From a phage, in the NCBI GenBank assembly GCA_033239445.1, contig GCA_033239445.1_3953.1: 64,000 bases of DNA; one strand, given 5' to 3'. Within the stretch, counting starts at the first letter, position 1, and every line of letters begins with the position of its first letter. Positions 1 to 6,621 of this stretch are shown here, piece after piece. Below the pieces are notes generated by a model. The model saw nothing but the letters and a program-made list of their open reading frames with translations, was not told where the DNA came from and made no database searches. A program made the translations under genes and the position numbers.

Positions 1-47
1 TTACGGTCTTCAGTTGACTCAAGCGGTCTTTCACTTGACCTCAAAAT

Positions 48-123
48 TGGTGCTCCCACAAGGATTCGAACCCTGATAAGTTGCTTACAAGGCAACCGTA
101 ATAGCCAATTATACGATAAGAGC
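48..123 (-). tRNA. tRNA-Thr (anticodon TGT)
   Basis: Minus-strand cloverleaf read by eye: CCA encoded (tgg 48-50), acceptor gctccca pairs with taagagc (two G:U), T-loop TTCGAAT, anticodon stem gttgc/gcaac with loop CTTGTAA. Confidence 0.8.
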
Positions 124-129
124 ATTGTT

Positions 130-204
130 TGGAGCATCCAGAGGGAATCGAACCCTCAACCTCAGTTTGGAAGACTGTAATTTTCCCGTTTAAACTATGG
201 ATGC
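130..204 (-). tRNA. tRNA-Gly (anticodon TCC)
   Basis: Minus strand; encoded CCA, acceptor gcatcca/tggatgc, T-loop TTCGATT, anticodon loop CTTCCAA, discriminator U. Confidence 0.8.
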
Positions 205-210
205 ACTAAT

Positions 211-286
211 TGGTGGAGAAGCAGGGAATTGAACCCTGTACTTAAGTTTGCAAAACTTACGTTTTAACCATGTAAACTACATCCCC
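211..286 (-). tRNA. tRNA-Ala (anticodon TGC)
   Basis: Minus strand; encoded CCA, T-stem caggg/ccctg, anticodon stem taagt/actta with loop TTTGCAA; acceptor stem carries a G3:U70 pair, the classical Ala identity element. Confidence 0.8.
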
Positions 287-292
287 ATTGTT

Positions 293-368
293 TGGTACAG
301 GTGGAGGGAATTGAACCCATCGTCTTACTGATTAAGAGTCAGCCGCATAACCATTTTGCTACACCTGC
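293..368 (-). tRNA. tRNA-Lys (anticodon CTT)
   Basis: Minus strand; encoded CCA, acceptor acaggtg/cacctgc, anticodon loop CTCTTAA; close paralog of the tRNA at 1747-1822. Confidence 0.7.
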
Positions 369-375
369 ATTAATT

Positions 376-452
376 TGGTACACCTAGAGAGATTCGAACT
401 CACACTGAGCAGATTCTAAGTCTGCTGCCTCTTCCAATTGGGCTATAGGTGC
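376..452 (-). tRNA. tRNA with anticodon TAG (Leu-type anticodon, class I fold with 5-nt variable loop)
   Basis: Minus strand; encoded CCA, U8-A9, D-stem GCC/GGC, anticodon stem GCAGA/TCTGC with loop CTTAGAA, variable region only 5 nt, discriminator A. Confidence 0.6.
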
Positions 453-705
453 ATTAAATCTTTGTAGAGAACTGCTAAGACGCCAAAGCAACAATGGTAT
501 CAAATGCCTTAACAATTCTCTAAAAAGACCTATTGGCCTCTGCATAGTCTTGCTTAATCCGGTGACTAGAACCTTTGGAGAGCTTGATATTATCTCTTCT
601 CCGTGACACCTACTAGGTGCTTTACCAGTGCCGTGTACGCCAATACACGAAGAGGAAACCTGAAACACTTGCTCGAACAGCGAGTCTCAGCTTTAAATCT
701 TATTA

Positions 706-795
706 GGCGGTAGATAAAGGAGTCGAACCCTCACCGTATTTCTACAATGGCAATAGTTTTCAAGACTATTTGGCTTCCATTAGCCGCTACCTACC
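706..795 (-). tRNA. tRNA-Ser (anticodon TGA), class II with long variable arm
   Basis: Minus strand; anticodon stem atagt/actat with loop CTTGAAA, long variable arm, T-loop TTCGACT, acceptor GGTAGGT/ATCTACC with one G:U, CC encoded. Confidence 0.7.
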
Positions 796-808
796 CCTAA
801 TAAGACTT

Positions 809-891
809 TGGCATGGGACGGAGGATTCGAACCCCTTTGAGTAAGTTTTGGAGGCTTACGCACATGCCTTAGTGTCTTAACATCGTCCCAT
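809..891 (-). tRNA. atypical tRNA-like gene, best read as tRNA-Trp (anticodon CCA) with enlarged D region
   Basis: Minus strand; perfect 7-bp acceptor atgggac/gtcccat with encoded CCA, T-loop TTCGAAT, anticodon-like loop CTCCAAA on a 4-bp stem, 5-nt variable loop; D region about 6 nt too long and position 8 is G. Confidence 0.45.
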
Positions 892-1056
892 ACTATATTT
901 CGAAGCTTACCCTGTTATCTCAACACTGTCAAGCTTCTTCTCAGATTATTTACATGTTCTGGAAAACATGAGATACAGACCACCTCCTTATGAGATTGAC
1001 TCTTTCAAGTCAATGCGGAGACCCATAAAGGTCGTCGTAGTAATCTGCTAACTATT

Positions 1057-1177
1057 TGGCAGTCAAGGTAGGAGTCGAACCTACTTACTATCGAAGGGAG
1101 CTACCCTTCAGCAACTTTCCGACTTTCGTTTATCTCTTAACGCGTATCTAAGATAACTTACTCGTGTTGTCTTGACC
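1057..1177 (-). ncRNA. 121-nt tRNA-like RNA (acceptor stem, T-arm and encoded CCA but no anticodon arm)
   Basis: tgg at 1057-1059, acceptor agtcaag pairs with cttgacc at 1171-1177, perfect T-arm gtagg/agtcgaa/cctac; interior holds hairpin gaaggg-agcta-cccttc and palindromic ttatct/agataa but no 5-7-5 anticodon arm. Confidence 0.45.
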
Positions 1178-1185
1178 ATTAAAAT

Positions 1186-1262
1186 TGGCACACCCTACAG
1201 GATTCGAACCTGTAACTGACGGTTTAGAAGACCGTTGCTCTATCCGTTTGAACTAAGGGTGC
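1186..1262 (-). tRNA. tRNA-Arg (anticodon TCT)
   Basis: Minus strand; encoded CCA, acceptor acaccct/agggtgc, T-stem acagg/cctgt, anticodon stem acggt/accgt with loop CTTCTAA. Confidence 0.8.
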
Positions 1263-1510
1263 ATTATCTTTAAAGGCTCTCTTAGAAAACCCTTAAAGAT
1301 GCCCACTTTATTAATCATACCGTGGGCTAGTACGCCAAATTCTTTAACAGGGAGTTGGAATACCCTGCTGGTGTTTAGCCTATTAAGCTACTGCCAGAAA
1401 AACATTATCGTTTGCATTTATTTTTAAGTTTTTAAAATAGACGCTACGCTAACGAAAACTAAGGTTATCTTAAAGTGGTCACATCTGAATGTCAACAACT
1501 TTATGAAATT

Positions 1511-1586
1511 TGGTACTGGTAGGTGGAATCGAACCACCGATATTCCCTTATCAGGGGAGTGTTATAACCTTCTTAACTATACCAGC
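1511..1586 (-). tRNA. tRNA-Ile (anticodon GAT)
   Basis: Minus strand; encoded CCA, acceptor actggta/taccagc, T-stem ggtgg/ccacc, anticodon loop CTGATAA. Confidence 0.8.
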
Positions 1587-1588
1587 AT

Positions 1589-1665
1589 TGGAGGTTCAGG
1601 TGGGAATCGAACCCACATTCATAGGGCTTATGAAACCCTTGCATTACCTTATCTGCGACTGAACC
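1589..1665 (-). tRNA. tRNA with anticodon CAT (elongator Met or Ile2-type)
   Basis: Minus strand; encoded CCA, perfect acceptor ggttcag/ctgaacc, anticodon stem agggc/accct with loop TTCATAA; fully paired 1:72 argues against an initiator. Confidence 0.75.
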
Positions 1666-1746
1666 ATTATAAGTTGCCCCTTTGTAGAGAACTGATTGAG
1701 TGGGTGTTTCCAGCCGCGCATGTGTTCTTCAGTTAAGGGGCGAATT

Positions 1747-1822
1747 TGGTAGAAGTGGAGGGATTCGAACCCGTCGCCTGTCAGATTAAAAGTCTGCCGC
1801 ATCACCATTCTGCTACACTTCC
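1747..1822 (-). tRNA. tRNA-Lys (anticodon TTT)
   Basis: Minus strand; encoded CCA, acceptor agaagtg/cacttcc, anticodon stem tcaga/tctgc with loop CTTTTAA. Confidence 0.75.
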
Positions 1823-2024
1823 ATTAAATCATCTTTGCAGTAACCTACGCAAACCTTGCTAAAGGGTTTGTAGAGTCATCTCTTATAAGCTAATCTAGAA
1901 TCATGCTCAAGAGACTCTTCGGCACTCATGGGACGACTGGTTAGCTCCATAAGTCACTGCAAAGAGGATTACCAGACCGTATTTATCTTAAGTGCTTCCA
2001 TTACACCAACACGCCGTAACGTGT

Positions 2025-2041
2025 GAAGGAATCGAACCTTC
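2025..2041 (-). other. orphan T-arm-like hairpin (gaagg-aatcgaa-ccttc) with no complete tRNA around it
   Basis: Perfect 5-bp stem and TTCGATT-type loop on the minus strand, but no matching acceptor or anticodon arm within 90 nt; flanked by spacer motifs A and B. Confidence 0.3.
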
Positions 2042-2077
2042 GCCTTTTCTTTACCAGAGAAATAGATTGTTTATTGT

Positions 2078-2118
2078 TTGCTGTAAACGGTCTTCTGTAA
2101 AATTGTTGGAACCAGACC
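2078..2118 (-). repeat. tRNA-cluster spacer motif A (TTGCTGTAAACGGTCTTCTGTAAA) followed by motif B (ACCAGACC)
   Basis: Motif A recurs at 2166-2185, 2622-2645 and 2785-2804; motif B recurs at 1971-1978, 2575-2582 and 2735-2742. Confidence 0.6.
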
Positions 2119-2165
2119 AAGTTTTAAATTTTTCAAATTAAATTGGCTTGAAATATTAAAATTGC

Positions 2166-2185
2166 TTGCTGTATTTGGTCTTCTG
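2166..2185 (-). repeat. tRNA-cluster spacer motif A copy
   Basis: ttgctgtatttggtcttctg; same core as the other three copies. Confidence 0.6.
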
Positions 2186-2246
2186 CTCCTTTAAAGAATA
2201 CTCGTAAGAACTCTTTAAGGGAGGGGCTAAAAAGCCCTCTCAAATT

Positions 2247-2323
2247 TGGCGGTTACGAAGGGATTCGAACCCTCATCATCCTCCGTGACAGGGAGGTATT
2301 TTGACCAGTTAAACTACATAACC
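2247..2323 (-). tRNA. tRNA-Asp (anticodon GTC)
   Basis: Minus strand; encoded CCA, acceptor ggttacg/cataacc, anticodon stem cctcc/ggagg with loop CTGTCAC. Confidence 0.8.
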
Positions 2324-2329
2324 TTTATT

Positions 2330-2417
2330 TGGTGCGCCGTGAAGGAGTCGAACCTCCCGAGTCATAATGACAAGTGATTTACAGTCACCACCGCTTCCAT
2401 CTACGGGATAACGACGC
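2330..2417 (-). tRNA. tRNA-Tyr (anticodon GTA), class II
   Basis: Minus strand; 88 nt with long variable arm, encoded CCA, acceptor gcgccgt/acgacgc, anticodon loop CTGTAAA. Confidence 0.75.
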
Positions 2418-2486
2418 ATTTTATTCTATTCAGGCTAAGGACTTGCACCTTACAAATCGGTGAGCAATCGCTTCTCTCCCAAATCT

Positions 2487-2563
2487 TGGCGGTTAGTCAG
2501 GGATTCGAACCCTGTACCATTCGGTTAACAGCCGACCGCACATGCCTTATGTGCTTCCTAACC
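2487..2563 (-). tRNA. tRNA-Asn (anticodon GTT)
   Basis: Minus strand; encoded CCA, perfect T-stem caggg/ccctg, anticodon stem tcgg/ccga with loop CTGTTAA. Confidence 0.75.
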
Positions 2564-2574
2564 ATGTTAGTATT

Positions 2575-2645
2575 ACCAGACCGTATCTTTTCATTTTTTG
2601 CCTATAAAAAATTTTAAGTGTTTGCTGTAAACGGCCTTCTGTAAA
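2575..2645 (-). repeat. spacer motif B (2575-2582) plus motif A (2622-2645) between tRNA-Asn and the CAT-anticodon tRNA
   Basis: On the minus strand motif B reads TGgTAATAC, an extended -10-like element ending about 6 nt before the tRNA-Asn 5-prime end. Confidence 0.5.
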
Positions 2646-2647
2646 TT

Positions 2648-2724
2648 TGGAGGCGGGTGTAGGAGTCGAACCTACCGATAACATGCTAATGAGACATGTG
2701 AGACACCCTTTCTCTATACCCGCA
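2648..2724 (-). tRNA. second tRNA with anticodon CAT, atypical
   Basis: Minus strand; encoded CCA, perfect T-arm gtagg/cctac, D-stem GAGA/TCTC, anticodon loop CTCATTA (pyrimidine at 37), apparent U1:C72 mismatch. Confidence 0.5.
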
Positions 2725-2734
2725 ATTCTTAATG

Positions 2735-2804
2735 ACCAGACCAAATCTTTTTTGGATTTCTATGCGCGAAATTGAAAAGTTTGTTTGCTGTAATTGGTCT
2801 TCTG
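2735..2804 (-). repeat. spacer motif B (2735-2742) plus motif A (2785-2804) between the CAT tRNA and tRNA-Glu
   Basis: Same A and B cores as the other copies. Confidence 0.5.
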
Positions 2805-2811
2805 TCAAAAC

Positions 2812-2889
2812 TGGCATTCCCGAAGGGACTTGAACCCTCAAACCACACCTTGAAAGGGTGTTGACTTTACCTAATTTGTCTACGGGAAT
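2812..2889 (-). tRNA. tRNA-Glu (anticodon TTC)
   Basis: Minus strand; encoded CCA, perfect acceptor attcccg/cgggaat, anticodon stem acacc/ggtgt with loop CTTTCAA. Confidence 0.8.
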
Positions 2890-2895
2890 ATAATT

Positions 2896-2975
2896 TGGTC
2901 TCCGTTGAAGGATTTGAACCTTCGACCCCTTGCTCCCAAAGCAAGTGCTGCTAAACCAAACTGAGCTAAACGGAG
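2896..2975 (-). tRNA. tRNA-Pro (anticodon TGG)
   Basis: Minus strand; encoded CCA, perfect acceptor ctccgtt/aacggag, anticodon stem cttgc/gcaag with loop TTTGGGA. Confidence 0.75.
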
Positions 2976-3098
2976 ATAATCTTTTTAACAACCTATGTAA
3001 CAACTATAACACTATTTTTTAGTGTCTGTCAAGAGGTTTTTTAAAATAATTTGATTTATTTCAGAAAACTTCTTTTTCGTTTCTATGTAGAACATATT

Positions 3099-3130
3099 AA
3101 AGGGTATTAAACACTTTGTCAATACCCTTT
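3099..3130. terminator. hairpin just downstream of the Ro60-like gene, possible bidirectional terminator
   Basis: Perfect 9-bp inverted repeat aagggtatt / aataccctt with 12-nt loop, T-rich flank on the plus side. Confidence 0.35.
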
Positions 3131-3140
3131 TTAAAACTTT

Positions 3141-4556
3141 TTACCAATCGTAGCGTTCAACCATTACTGCTTTGAGCATTACGCTGATAGGGTCAAACTT
3201 CTCACCACCAAGCAAAGCTTTTAAAGTGGCTGGAGAGAAACCAGATACCATCGCTACACCGTTATCCTTTACAGACACTTCGCAAGTACCGTTACGGTTT
3301 GCTAAGTACCAGAATACCAGTTGTGGCATCTCATATCCAGCTTTCTTGTACTTTTCTTGAATTGCTTCAAAGTTAGTACGACCATCTGCTCCATCAACCT
3401 GATTAAACTGCATATCAGAGAAGATGATAAGCTTACTAGGCATCTCTTTCTGAGTCAAGTTGTTTTTAACACCAATCTCAAGGATTCTTGCAAAAGCAGC
3501 TTGTAGGTCAGTTGAACCATACTCTACATGACTCTTCACTTGACGTAAGCGAGTCTGTAAATCACCACTCAATGTGATGAAGTGAGGTCTGCTAGAGTAA
3601 ACCATCAATTCATCTTTAAAGCAACCTGTATTACGTTCTGAAACGTACAGGGCTAAAGATACACCAATGTCTAGCGCTGTAACAGAACCATGTCGCTCCC
3701 AAGTCATAGATGAAGATACATCTGCCATGCACAGAATGTTCTCACCCTCTTTCATCCAGTTTGGTAAAGCTTTCCACTGCTCATTTGCAACGGTTGCATT
3801 ACCATAACCGACTGACTTTGTAATGTCATAAGGGTAGACTGCACCAGCATTAATCTTAGTCTCACCTTTAGTCAGTGCTGCAATGTATGCTGCATAACGC
3901 TCACCATCTTTACGACTGAAGAGTTTTTGATAACGTGCAGCAGCCAGTGAAGGAAGCTTGCTGTAATCAATCTCTCCGAACTCATTTGCTGAAATCTTTT
4001 GTTCAACAGTATCAGATAGTGCTGACAGAAGAACTCGATACTGCTTCTCTGAAAGATTTGCAAACTTACAGAAACGACGAACAAAACGCATGTGTCGTGA
4101 TTTTACTCGTGGTAACCATTTTGCTGCCAGAGCCGATGTTGCAGGGTCTAATAGTGCCGATTCTAAATGCTTGAAAGCATCTGTTTCGTAACGTGTACCA
4201 ACAAAGATTTTGAAGTCATCATAACGACCTAAATCAGAAATCTTGTCCATGATACGTAATACTTGAAACTCATCAAGAATCCCATCAGAGATTGCTTTAG
4301 TAAGAGTATAACGGAATGCTTTACGCTCACCCATACCTTCTCGTGCATCTCGCATATGTAACAGGATTCGAACTGCTACATCAATATCTTCTCGCATTGC
4401 CTTGTAAAACAAGTTTGGAAGAACTTCTACGTTTGTTCTGCTTGAACCAGCAGCTTTGTAGAAATCTACCAGTGCAGACATTGAAGAGGTGTGGTTAACA
4501 GCACCGTTTTCAGTTAAACCTGCATGTAAATGCGAGTGCTTAAATAATTCGCTCAT
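3141..4556 (-). CDS. rsr: Ro60/TROVE-family RNA-binding protein (Rsr-like) with C-terminal vWA domain
   Basis: 471 aa; MIDAS motif LCMADVSSSM, plus GSTDLQ and KLIIFSDMQF blocks, and upstream EGMGERKAFRYTLTKAI and YPYDITKSVGY, all matching remembered Ro60 landmarks (DVSxSM, GGTD, FTDNETF, HPFHIL). Confidence 0.7.
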   Translation of the reverse strand: MSELFKHSHLHAGLTENGAVNHTSSMSALVDFYKAAGSSRTNVEVLPNLFYKAMREDIDVAVRILLHMRDAREGMGERKAFRYTLTKAISDGILDEFQVLRIMDKISDLGRYDDFKIFVGTRYETDAFKHLESALLDPATSALAAKWLPRVKSRHMRFVRRFCKFANLSEKQYRVLLSALSDTVEQKISANEFGEIDYSKLPSLAAARYQKLFSRKDGERYAAYIAALTKGETKINAGAVYPYDITKSVGYGNATVANEQWKALPNWMKEGENILCMADVSSSMTWERHGSVTALDIGVSLALYVSERNTGCFKDELMVYSSRPHFITLSGDLQTRLRQVKSHVEYGSTDLQAAFARILEIGVKNNLTQKEMPSKLIIFSDMQFNQVDGADGRTNFEAIQEKYKKAGYEMPQLVFWYLANRNGTCEVSVKDNGVAMVSGFSPATLKALLGGEKFDPISVMLKAVMVERYDW

Positions 4557-4632
4557 ATTAATTCTCTCTCGTTAGAATGTTTTGGTGAGACAGACTCTAA
4601 CGTTTGATTTAGAACCTGTCAACACCTTTTTA

Positions 4633-5001
4633 TTATTTTTTCAGAGTTGCTACAGCAGAGAACGTTGGTTTGTTCTCCTGTGCTCCCTGATTCCCATTAT
4701 CTGTAGTCTTTTTGTCTACAGCGATGGCTTTCATCTCACCTGCTGAGTGAGTCATGATAACTTTACCAGCTTCCATCATTGACTTGACTTGGATATCTTT
4801 TTGAGTCAAACCAAATTCAGCAAGCTTTACAGGGTCTCTTGTAACAATGGCCTCAAACAGCTTTGCAGCATACTCTGCTGAGTTATCAATAGTCAACTGT
4901 GCCTTGACCAGTGAACTCTTGTTACGTGAGCCTTTGGGTCTACCTGATGGGTTACCAGATTGACCTTTCTTGAATTGGCCTTTGTTTGTTCGTTTCGTCA
5001 T
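4633..5001 (-). CDS. hypothetical basic protein with GNPSGRPKGSRNK motif
   Basis: 122 aa ORF; motif resembles the GNPxGRPKG signature seen in a family of small phage proteins. Confidence 0.5.
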   Translation of the reverse strand: MTKRTNKGQFKKGQSGNPSGRPKGSRNKSSLVKAQLTIDNSAEYAAKLFEAIVTRDPVKLAEFGLTQKDIQVKSMMEAGKVIMTHSAGEMKAIAVDKKTTDNGNQGAQENKPTFSAVATLKK

Positions 5002-5391
5002 TCTTCACCTCTTTTAAGAACTCTTAAAAGGCTTTTAAGATAAGAGATAGATATCCAGAAAGATATCTGTTTAAATAGCCTTTTTAGAAGAGTCTTTTAA
5101 GTAATCTTCTAAGTATTTATTAGGCTACACGTTGTCAAGAGGAATGTCAAGTAAATTTTTTAGTTGCAATACTTCTTGACTTGTTGTATGGATTACTGTA
5201 CCATCTTACTAAAGCTGTAGGTCTGCCTTTATCTACAAAGGAGACTTAATGAGAAACAATTCAAAATTGAAGACAGGTAATAATACCAATCACTGTAAGG
5301 AATCAAAGCGGGTAGAATTACTCTATTACAAATCCTCTGAAATTGGTTTGTACCTATACTTTCAAAATTATAGACGACAAGAGGATTATTT

Positions 5392-5625
5392 ATGTGTAGC
5401 TCCCAACTAGAAATCACAGATATTATTGATTTATACCAAACTGCAAAGAGTCATGGGTATATCACTTCAATTGGAAAGAATAAGCACTATGATGCACTAA
5501 CTGGTATGTATTTCAGAGCAATAGCTCAATCTAGTGAACAGGTTCTAATGGTTTCTTCCAGTGAATTTGCTTCATTTCTCTATTGCAGCAAGATTATCAA
5601 TCGTAGGAGAACTGATAAATGTTAA
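5392..5625 (+). CDS. hypothetical protein
   Basis: 77 aa ORF with SD aagagg upstream; first gene of the plus-strand block. Confidence 0.4.
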   Translation: MCSSQLEITDIIDLYQTAKSHGYITSIGKNKHYDALTGMYFRAIAQSSEQVLMVSSSEFASFLYCSKIINRRRTDKC

Positions 5626-6209
5626 ACGTGAGTTTTAATTATAATGGTGACGGGTCTGTATCAATCACTTCACCATATTCTGATGACCTTCTTAAAGAGT
5701 TGGTTAATCAATGTGAAAGAGGTATGCACTACGTACCTAATTCATTTAAACAGAAAACAATTGCAAATAACTTGATGCGTGTTACTGTTCAGTCAATGAA
5801 CCCAGATTATAACATTGATGGTGAAAGTCCATACTCACTTATGGCTTTAGGTGCTAATAGTGAATTTAAACTGGTGTGTCATGATTCAGAAACATTCTTC
5901 AAAGTATTCTCAAATCTTATCCACAATGCTAAATACAGTTATGTAGCTGGTTCAACATCATTCTCTCCAGCAAACTACACATGTGTTGTGATTGATAACC
6001 TCAGAGAGTCTGAAGATACTTCCACAGAGATTTCTTTCGATGTGAACACCTCTCCAGAGTCCACTCCAAGTAATGACTTTGACATGAACTATGCGTTATC
6101 TCTGAGTAAGAAATCTGATTTCATTGAATACGTCAATGGATTTGGATTTAAGTTGGATGAGACAATGAATCTCAAAAAACTTAAAAACATGCTTAAGACT
6201 ATGGCTTAA
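5619..6209 (+). CDS. hypothetical protein
   Basis: 196 aa ORF, followed by hairpin ggggc-gaaa-gcccc plus T-run. Confidence 0.55.
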   Translation: MLNVSFNYNGDGSVSITSPYSDDLLKELVNQCERGMHYVPNSFKQKTIANNLMRVTVQSMNPDYNIDGESPYSLMALGANSEFKLVCHDSETFFKVFSNLIHNAKYSYVAGSTSFSPANYTCVVIDNLRESEDTSTEISFDVNTSPESTPSNDFDMNYALSLSKKSDFIEYVNGFGFKLDETMNLKKLKNMLKTMA

Positions 6210-6215
6210 GTTTTA

Positions 6216-6240
6216 TGGGGCGAAAGCCCCTTTTATTTGT
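6216..6240 (+). terminator. rho-independent terminator
   Basis: ggggcgaaagcccc hairpin followed by TTTTATTT. Confidence 0.6.
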
Positions 6241-6252
6241 TAAGGATAGATA

Positions 6253-6621
6253 ATGAAGGCAAAGAGTGGAAAAGACTTTTATTGCTTCCTACAATCTTAT
6301 GTCCAAAGTGTTCAAGAAGGTGACAGGTATAATCTTGATGATGTACTTCCGACACCCTTAACATGGCGTGATAGCAAATGGCCTGAGAAGGATATCAACC
6401 CTACCGAAACATATTCCGAATACACACCTAAAATTCCTCTACCAGATACTGAAGAACTTCTTTACCCAATGTTTCATATCGTTGGTCTTGGTACATTTTT
6501 GATGGATATTCAATATGTGATGGGTAAAGGCTATAAGATTGACGGAGTTGTTGTAGGTGATGTTTCACCGCAGCACAAAGGTTATTTTAGACTAAATGCA
6601 AGATTAGAGGCTAAGAAATGA
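6253..6621 (+). CDS. hypothetical protein, paralog of the N-terminal domain of the next gene
   Basis: 122 aa; shares W-P-E-x-D-I, Y-T-P, EELLY and MD(I/L)QY blocks with residues 1-120 of 6618-7502. Confidence 0.55.
   Translation: MKAKSGKDFYCFLQSYVQSVQEGDRYNLDDVLPTPLTWRDSKWPEKDINPTETYSEYTPKIPLPDTEELLYPMFHIVGLGTFLMDIQYVMGKGYKIDGVVVGDVSPQHKGYFRLNARLEAKK

Follow-up and report, generated by a model that had tools for sequence, protein, structure and literature searches.

Structured RNAs in a phage tRNA cluster belong to a family that accompanies DUF2828 genes and suggest a Ro60/Y-RNA-like particle

The phage DNA considered here (GenBank assembly GCA_033239445.1, contig GCA_033239445.1_3953.1; the whole stretch of 64,000 nucleotides that was analysed is called the window) carries a cluster of 16 tRNA genes, all on the minus strand between positions 48 and 2975 (ARAGORN), and the next gene upstream in the direction of transcription encodes a DUF2828 protein (3141-4556, minus strand). 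Positions 1-3300 are up to 99.4% identical to Ounavirinae phages of Shigella, Citrobacter, and Escherichia, and the closest matches are members of Mooglevirus such as Sf17 and ESh20. Short motifs recur in the spacers between the tRNA genes, and a sequence-only reading of the window had taken them to imply internal promoters, processing signals, or additional small RNAs. Our analysis confirms the motifs and supports that interpretation in part. Two of them, motifs A and B, together make up a single RNA element, as its 5′ and 3′ halves, and this element is present four times on the minus strand (units 1 to 4). These units very probably represent a family of conserved, structured RNAs linked to DUF2828.

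Motif A (TTGCTGTAAACGGTCTTCTG) has exactly four matches with three or fewer mismatches in the 64-kb window, at 2078, 2166, 2622, and 2785 on the plus strand, and none was obtained in 100 shuffles of the sequence. Motif B (ACCAGACC) has four copies in the cluster, at 1971, 2111, 2575, and 2735, and four further unrelated sites near 57.6-59 kb (chance expectation, 1.2). What had been overlooked is that A and B are always paired, 60-125 nt apart, and that they are mutually complementary on the minus strand. The additional small RNAs proposed from sequence are thus borne out, with motifs A and B bounding four structured RNAs and with a fifth conserved structured element lying at 1823-1968.

All four units fold (RNAfold) with a common closing structure, comprising a 4-5-bp outer stem, an AGA bulge opposite a single G, and a 7-bp inner stem of the type AGACCGU/ACGGUCU or AGACCAA/UUGGUCU, with an unpaired (U/A)UACAGCAA box directly after the closing stem. 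In these phages the inner G-C pair of the inner stem is invariant and a G is conserved after the 3′ strand, and the interior is variable in units 2 to 4 and consists of a permuted tRNA-like module in unit 1. Unit 4 (2733-2807, minus strand) lies in the tRNA-Glu/tRNA-Met spacer and has the outer stem UGAC/GUCA, an AGA/G internal loop, and the inner stem AGACCAA/UUGGUCU, together with a UUACAGCAA box and an interior that varies; it is supported by its predicted fold, by orthologues in relatives, by covariation of the outer stem, and by a match to R1, a covariance model built from 39 short units (2734-2804, 43.2 bits, E 3e-7). Unit 3 (2573-2644, minus strand), in the tRNA-Met/tRNA-Asn spacer, combines the outer stem UUAC/GUAA and the inner stem AGGCCGU/ACGGUCU with the UUACAGCAA box and is matched by R1 at 2574-2641 (50.9 bits, E 4e-9) and, below threshold, by the Rfam family RF01414. 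Unit 2 (2108-2189, minus strand) has the outer stem GGAGC/GUUCC, the inner stem AGACCAA/UUGGUCU, and the box variant AUACAGCAA, and its R1 match spans 2110-2185 (49 bits). Units 3 and 4 each take up a complete inter-tRNA spacer (2564-2647 and 2725-2811), and units 2 and 1 are neighbours between tRNA-Asp and the structured element at 1823-1968; all four sit 330-2500 nt downstream of the DUF2828 gene on the same strand.

The stems covary. Among the paralogues the inner stem alternates between CCGU/ACGG and CCAA/UUGG, and the outer stem takes the forms UUAC/GUAA, UGAC/GUCA, and GAGC/GCUC, with a further compensatory version, UUGC/GCAA, in one orthologue. Comparison with related phages, as proposed together with the motifs, likewise reveals closing stems that are kept through compensatory changes. 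Substitutions of this kind within the motifs indicate constraint on the RNA rather than the DNA level.

Unit 1 (1969-2100, minus strand) is a long, YrlA-like form delineated by RNAfold, 12 orthologues, and the Rfam tRNA model. It has the same closing stem and UUACAGCAA box as the short units, and within them are predicted four hairpins: V (2046-2062), a T-arm (2025-2041), an acceptor-like hairpin, AS (2009-2024), and a D-arm (1992-2006). The T-arm had been described as perfect and isolated; on the minus strand it does have a perfect stem of 5 bp, capped by a UUCGAUU loop, but far from being isolated it is part of this V/T/AS/D module. In the 12 distinct versions from Ounavirinae, the D stem does not vary and the T stem hardly does (one broken cell), and the AS stem has three pairs changed on both sides, its pairing being kept in three sequences (ACACG/CGUGU, ACUCGGC/GUCGAGU, and ACCCUUC/GAAGGGU). 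The V hairpin, preceded by CUAU, is variable and is replaced in one lineage (loci L097 and L117). In YrlA Y RNAs, YUAY, a variable V hairpin, a near-invariant T-arm, a non-conserved acceptor-like hairpin, and a near-invariant D-arm are laid out in this order and enclosed by the paired RNA ends (Chen et al., 2014; PMC4201824), and the order of hairpins in unit 1 agrees with it; among the four units, only unit 1 has such a YrlA-type tRNA-like domain. The Rfam tRNA model scores 28.8 bits on the V/T part, at 2017-2091 (gathering score 29), taking the V hairpin as an anticodon arm with GGU. In one relative (L096, from 5544 onward), unit 1 is broken after the T-arm by other sequence.

The comparative evidence extends far beyond the Ounavirinae. 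In 80 viral loci picked solely for encoding a DUF2828 relative, T[TA]ACAGCAA recurs 20-500 nt from the DUF2828 gene on the gene strand, and the 6-bp stem that flanks it varies in sequence between phages. On the window, R1 finds the four units and nothing else; on the viral loci it gives 86 matches at E<0.1, every one on the gene strand, and 51 of the 80 loci have a match at E<0.01, with 54 of the 71 such matches lying no more than 500 nt from the gene. Since the seed of R1 had been chosen for stem pairing, we used a pair outside that selection as a non-circular check, and columns 5/82 prove to be A-U in 30 sequences, U-A in 7, and unpaired in 1. An independent set of 80 bacterial and archaeal genome loci, whose DUF2828 homologues are 32-41% identical, yields 50 matches at E<0.05, on the gene strand throughout and mostly just upstream of the gene. 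In these 50 matches the stem positions are all paired, with 18 additional pair types, against 36-47% pairing in slid-column controls. The stems also change by compensation among phages whose DUF2828 proteins are only 30-45% identical.

Among cultured phages, the element adjoins the DUF2828 gene in those that infect Listeria (three tandem copies), Staphylococcus, Campylobacter, Mycobacterium, and Vibrio, and the sources as a whole comprise phages of Gram-negative, Gram-positive, and actinobacterial hosts together with genome bins assigned to many phyla. Many of the RNA-bearing loci have no tRNA within 6 kb (among them L009, L012, L017, L018, L020, L025, L030, L034, L068, L071, and L075), and therefore the RNA follows the protein gene and not the tRNA clusters. 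Behind stand-alone copies in L068, L071, and L073 lie a GC-rich hairpin and a U-run, interpretable as an intrinsic terminator, and elsewhere the units form tandem arrays of two to four copies. Long forms with tRNA-like modules also occur in unrelated phages (L080, L036, L042, and L031), with sub-threshold YrlA matches. A literature search with the box sequence returned no phage paper.

Several of these loci have features of their own. In KVP40-like Vibrio phages, an element of about 40 nt lies in the 5′ untranslated region (UTR) of DUF2828 (L010, 5950-5990; L011, 1760-1799; L013, 2855-2894; L202, 2460-2510), ending 8-16 nt before the start of the tblastn match to the protein in the three IMG/VR loci; in L202 it overlaps the start codon as annotated. 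This location suggests autoregulation by the DUF2828 protein. KVP40-like long forms (L010, 5272-5374; L033, 5730-5832; L013, 1261-1377; L014, 3129-3236; L011, 145-284) share one closing stem (GAUUAG or GAUUCG), and a conserved interior, CCUUUCUGGAGGGGAAAGCAAAAACUCGCCAA, replaces the tRNA-like module. A clade composed of L012, L021-L023, L027, L032, and L039 has forms of about 235 nt that start with GGAUCG-GUACAGCAAAAAGUA directly after a short unit. In Listeria phage LMSP-25 (L201), the three tandem units (2100-2400) lie upstream of the DUF2828 gene, and the genes just downstream of it (4569-6455) encode a metal-dependent phosphohydrolase and an RtcB-type 'tRNA splicing ligase', an arrangement that recalls the rsr-yrlBA-rtcBA RNA-repair operon of Salmonella. 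In L036, L045, L051, L055, L067, and L073, ARAGORN also predicts phage-encoded tmRNA genes no more than a few kb away from the DUF2828 gene, which may be another link to translation or RNA quality control.

The presumed partner of the units is the 471-aa protein encoded at 3141-4556, which RefSeq labels 'RNA-binding protein, DUF2828' and which belongs to PHROG 850, 'RNA-binding protein'. Its Pfam matches are DUF7788 (5.9e-44) and DUF2828 (5.3e-27), with no others. An AlphaFold2 model from 35 homologues is confident (pLDDT 88.9) and predicts, over the full length, a helical-repeat ring followed by a vWA domain, which is the fold of Ro60/TROVE proteins, and a Foldseek comparison is concordant with a Ro60-like fold. 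The DxSxS of the MIDAS is in place, with D279, S281, and S283 invariant in the 35 homologues and the sequence DVSSSM in the window protein. The relation to Ro60 emerged from fold comparison alone; searches of PDB and NCBIfam with the protein and with its 35-sequence profile gave nothing relevant. Some mycobacteriophage homologues are annotated as 'Ro-like RNA binding protein', and a 2024 preprint describes gp130 of Bas63 (Felixounavirus) as Ro60-like, located upstream of tRNAs, and able to neutralise the ppl defence, with the guess that 'some tRNA genes' might be Y RNAs. The window protein is probably orthologous to Bas63 gp130, judging from synteny at the genus level and 84-85% identity to Felixounavirus homologues. 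The resemblance of the protein to Ro was thus already known, and what is new here is the RNAs. Literature searches on DUF2828, PF11443, and UCP015417 returned plant, tardigrade, and other unrelated papers alone.

Taken with the RNAs, this protein points to a phage counterpart of the Ro60/Y-RNA particle, and we consider such a Y-RNA-like model in full to be probable, if less secure than the RNA family itself. Ahead of tRNA-Pro, at 3003-3032 on the minus strand, a consensus scan identifies a promoter-like site (TTGACA-18-TATAGT with an upstream TG; 11/12, a consensus match only), which is the likely start of the precursor for the tRNAs and Y-like RNAs. A terminator-like hairpin, also a consensus match only, follows the DUF2828 stop codon immediately (3099-3130, minus strand) and would split the protein gene from the tRNA/small RNA transcription unit. 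We postulate that the units are transcribed within a polycistronic tRNA precursor, probably from the site at 3032-3003, and that RNase P and tRNA 3′-end enzymes would release them by excising the flanking tRNAs. Processing signals, as proposed by the sequence-only reading, may hold in this secondary sense, because units 3 and 4 fill whole spacers and would be freed by tRNA end-processing. The closing stem and box would form the putative binding site of the Ro60-fold DUF2828 protein encoded just upstream. Perhaps the variable part or the tRNA mimic then recruits or gates a second partner, for instance an exoribonuclease or an enzyme of tRNA handling or repair, or perhaps it acts as a decoy of a host defence nuclease. 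Such a step would parallel the bacterial Y RNAs that tether Ro60 to PNPase; in the Thermus phage phiLo, Ro60/Yrl binds the host PNPase (PMC12135203). The RtcB gene near the Listeria phage locus and the mini-hairpin in the KVP40-like 5′ UTR fit a role in tRNA/RNA repair and feedback by the protein.

A number of results weigh against this interpretation. The Y-RNA motifs that contact Ro60, GGUCCGA and GNCGAAN0-1G, are absent, and the Rfam Y_RNA and YrlA models have no match in the window even at E<=10. On the protein side, no TROVE (PF05731) match is found in Pfam at E<=1, and Ro60 is not recovered from PDB by phmmer or by a 35-sequence profile at E<=10. Of the 80 viral loci, 29 are without an R1 match at E<0.01, although some of these have long or divergent forms. 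The single-sequence fold z-scores of the units are weak (-0.9 to -1.9), and hence the support for them is comparative and not thermodynamic. Finally, a crude test for a perfect 6-bp stem succeeds for 72 of 150 real and 30 of 150 shuffled hexamers, a high background that led us to rely instead on the covariance model, on the strand and position statistics, and on the unselected pair.

Other explanations of the motifs have to be set against these data. Were they internal sigma-70 promoters that restart transcription, with a TTTACA or TTGACA -35 and TGgTAATAC as an extended -10, one could point to the TTTACA or TTGACA hexamers within or beside motif A on the minus strand, and to one weak promoter-like match (9/12) at 2101-2073, the sole site that touches a motif. 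The minus-strand TGGTAATAC is also present, ending 4 nt before the 5′ end of tRNA-Asn, but its promoter sense is not supported: TAATAC is without the required T at position 6 of the -10, and no conserved -10 follows motif A at the correct spacing, because the interior is variable. The sigma-70 scan of 1-3200 returns 6 sites where 6.4 are expected by chance. Moreover, the stems of other phages are entirely different and have no -35-like hexamer, and compensatory changes between A and B, which extend to distant phages, are unexpected of DNA-level elements. Given the chance-level scan and the compensatory changes, we rejected internal promoters as highly improbable. We regard as even less credible that the T-arm region is a decayed tRNA gene and that the A/B repeats go back to duplicated spacers or to a miniature mobile element bearing terminal inverted repeats. 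The near-threshold score of the Rfam tRNA model on unit 1 and the fact that A and B form an imperfect inverted repeat would agree with such an origin, yet the order of T-arm, acceptor-like hairpin, and D-arm is permuted, is conserved in the Ounavirinae all the same, and recurs in the unrelated phages L080, L036, L042, and L031, which led us to reject both readings. The supposed anticodon arm is, in addition, replaced in the L097 and L117 lineage, the units are syntenic (no search was made for target-site duplications), and the stems compensate among phages with distantly related DUF2828 proteins.

Two further possibilities accept the structured RNAs and assign them differently. They might act apart from DUF2828, in the processing or stability of tRNA precursors, as decoys of host nucleases, or by base pairing through the ACAGCAA box, and both the filling of entire inter-tRNA spacers by units 3 and 4 and the predicted single-strandedness of the box could be so explained. 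Across diverse hosts and bins, however, the RNA tracks the DUF2828 gene rather than tRNA clusters, some copies stand alone with a putative intrinsic terminator of their own (L068, L071, and L073), and the 9-nt box is conserved whatever the host, which argues for a phage-encoded reader; a DUF2828-independent role is thus unlikely, although it is the most plausible of the alternatives. Alternatively, the elements might work in cis, as autoregulatory operators of the DUF2828 mRNA, rather than in trans as small RNAs. The position of the element on the gene strand, either within the 5′ UTR or shortly before it, would suggest this for many bacterial and prophage loci and for the KVP40-like phages. 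In the window, however, the units lie well downstream of the gene, beyond the terminator-like hairpin, the strong promoter-like site, and several tRNAs, and elsewhere they occur as tandem arrays or with putative terminators. A copy in the leader fits feedback by the same protein and would add to the particle model without replacing it. An exclusively cis-acting function does not fit the window and seems improbable to us.

The closest known system is that of Ro60 and the Y RNAs (YrlA, RF02553; YrlB; Yrn1 of D. radiodurans; and Ro60 with Yrl1/Yrl2 of Thermus phage phiLo). Common to both are a ring-shaped helical-repeat and vWA/MIDAS protein encoded beside one or more small RNAs with paired 5′ and 3′ ends, a conserved motif on the protein side at or beside the end stem, and the coexistence of short forms with a long form in which YUAY and a variable V precede a T-AS-D module; linkage to tRNA clusters and, in the Listeria phage, to RtcB is shared as well. 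Like YrlA, the units lie beside the gene for a protein of this fold and have paired ends, and their closing stems are backed by covariation. In contrast to Ro60, the window protein falls in Pfam DUF2828/DUF7788 and not in TROVE, and sequence searches fail to join the two. Unlike in Y RNAs, the candidate phage recognition element is a G-C-closed stem with UUACAGCAA and a 3′ UG, in place of GGUCCGA or GNCGAA(N)G, and the window RNAs sit between tRNAs in one predicted precursor. Where YrlA has GNCGAAN0-1G (PMC4201824), the 5′ region reads CAGAAGACCGUUUACAGCAA; the sole GGCGAAG, located at the T-stem junction, is not conserved, and several relatives have GGAGAAG instead. The YrlA gathering score of 69 bits is not reached, relatives scoring 39.2 and 32.9 bits over the tRNA-like part only, and at permissive thresholds no curated Rfam family matches the window or its relatives at its own cut-off.

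The sole Rfam family that the short units match repeatedly is RF01414, the Class I RNAs of Dictyostelium (Aspegren 2004; Avesson 2011; Kjellin 2021), at 17.6-29.1 bits (E 0.003 in a 751-nt search), with 17.6-22.2 bits in the window and 29.1 bits in L080, all below the gathering score of 41.5. Class I RNAs are 42-65 nt long, with a 5′/3′ stem that begins with an invariant G, an 11-nt CCUUACAGCAA box beside the 5′ strand, and a 3′ CUGU; they are eukaryotic, have DUSE promoters, and reportedly occur in Dictyostelia alone, and the RRM protein Rnp1A/CIBP is the sole protein proven to bind them directly. The phage short forms, at 44-75 nt, are of similar size and have in common with them a 5′/3′ stem of about 6 bp that begins with an invariant G-C pair, a single-stranded box right after the 5′ strand (CCUUACAGCAA in Dictyostelium, UUACAGCAA in phages), a remainder that varies, and a conserved 3′ C-UG(U). 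The two agree in architecture and at 9 of 11 box positions, and the phage box has all five near-universal Class I positions (U3, C6, C9, A10, and A11); the phage 3′ end is C-UG(G/U/A), and the spacing from stem to box is 1 nt shorter. Class I RNA and vWA proteins are both absent from the RNP1A paper. It is possible, though on balance doubtful, that the stem/UUACAGCAA RNAs and Class I RNAs form one family, by descent or by co-transfer with the protein, and share a DUF2828 reader. The DUF2828 Pfam family is presumably present in eukaryotes too, as the plant and tardigrade papers imply.

Small RNAs in a phage tRNA cluster also bring to mind phage T4, in which species 1 (rnaC) and species 2 (rnaD) are stable non-tRNA RNAs that are co-transcribed with the tRNA cluster and cut by the tRNA-processing machinery. 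The likeness is one of description, and no associated Ro-like protein is known for T4.

Other spacers of the cluster are structured as well. A separate conserved RNA of about 145 nt at 1823-1968 (minus strand) abuts the 5′ end of tRNA-Lys and is closed by a helix of about 23 bp, which contains the long-range pairing noted earlier between tctttgcagt and actgcaaaga (1833-1842/1955-1964). The folding check proposed for this region is positive, with z = -5.3 when 1823-1970 is folded on the minus strand. Between two Ounavirinae lineages, seven predicted pairs have compensatory changes on both sides, and AUUCUAGAUU and a loop of the UAGCAAG type are conserved. This element, which has no Rfam match, may represent a processing stem of the RNase III type or else a further small RNA. 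The third motif that had been placed at the 5′ ends of three tRNAs is weaker, corresponding to three loosely similar leaders, of which two have an exact 15-mer, CTTTGTAGAGAACTG, at 460 and 1680. The structured spacers at 453-705 (minus strand, z = -2.9) and 1666-1746 (minus strand, z = -3.6) both end in the common 15-mer CAGUUCUCUACAAAG, just ahead of a tRNA 5′ end, and account for this motif. The similarity is due in part to duplication of tRNA-plus-leader modules; the CUU and UUU versions of tRNA-Lys share 82% identity over 83 nt, short flanks included. Between tRNA-Asp and unit 2, the spacer of 61 nt (2186-2246, minus strand) has two predicted hairpins (z = -3.9). Two tRNA-like elements, at 808-895 and about 1056-1178 (both minus strand), have a T-arm, a 7-bp acceptor pairing, and an encoded CCA, and are called neither by ARAGORN nor by the Rfam tRNA model, the sole match being to tRNA-Sec (18.5 bits, 815-889). 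The former has a 13-mer in common with tRNA-Asn and the latter would span about 120 nt; they may be degenerate or atypical tRNAs, or further tRNA mimics. In several relatives, HNH endonuclease genes have been inserted into the tRNA spacers (H5-H7, Citrobacter phage Michonne), marking these spacers as insertion hot spots.

Ro60/Y-RNA particles have been studied for their part in RNA quality control, in autoimmunity and, lately, in phage counter-defence. Our analysis indicates the likely RNAs for a Ro60-like phage protein, together with their candidate recognition module, which is absent from Rfam and travels with DUF2828 genes in phages of many bacterial phyla. What has been hidden in phage tRNA spacers thus appears to be a widespread variant of the Ro60/Y-RNA system with an RNA recognition module of its own. 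It explains unannotated 'spacers' in phage tRNA clusters, makes the putative Bas63 particle directly testable, and provides in R1 a covariance model usable to annotate hundreds of phage genomes. For the Class I RNAs of Dictyostelium, too, a concrete hypothesis arises. If these and the phage RNAs were indeed one family, the abundant amoeba RNAs that have been orphans for 20 years would gain a candidate protein partner and a biochemical role, and a second, TROVE-independent branch of Ro/Y-RNA particles would extend across viruses, bacteria, and eukaryotes.

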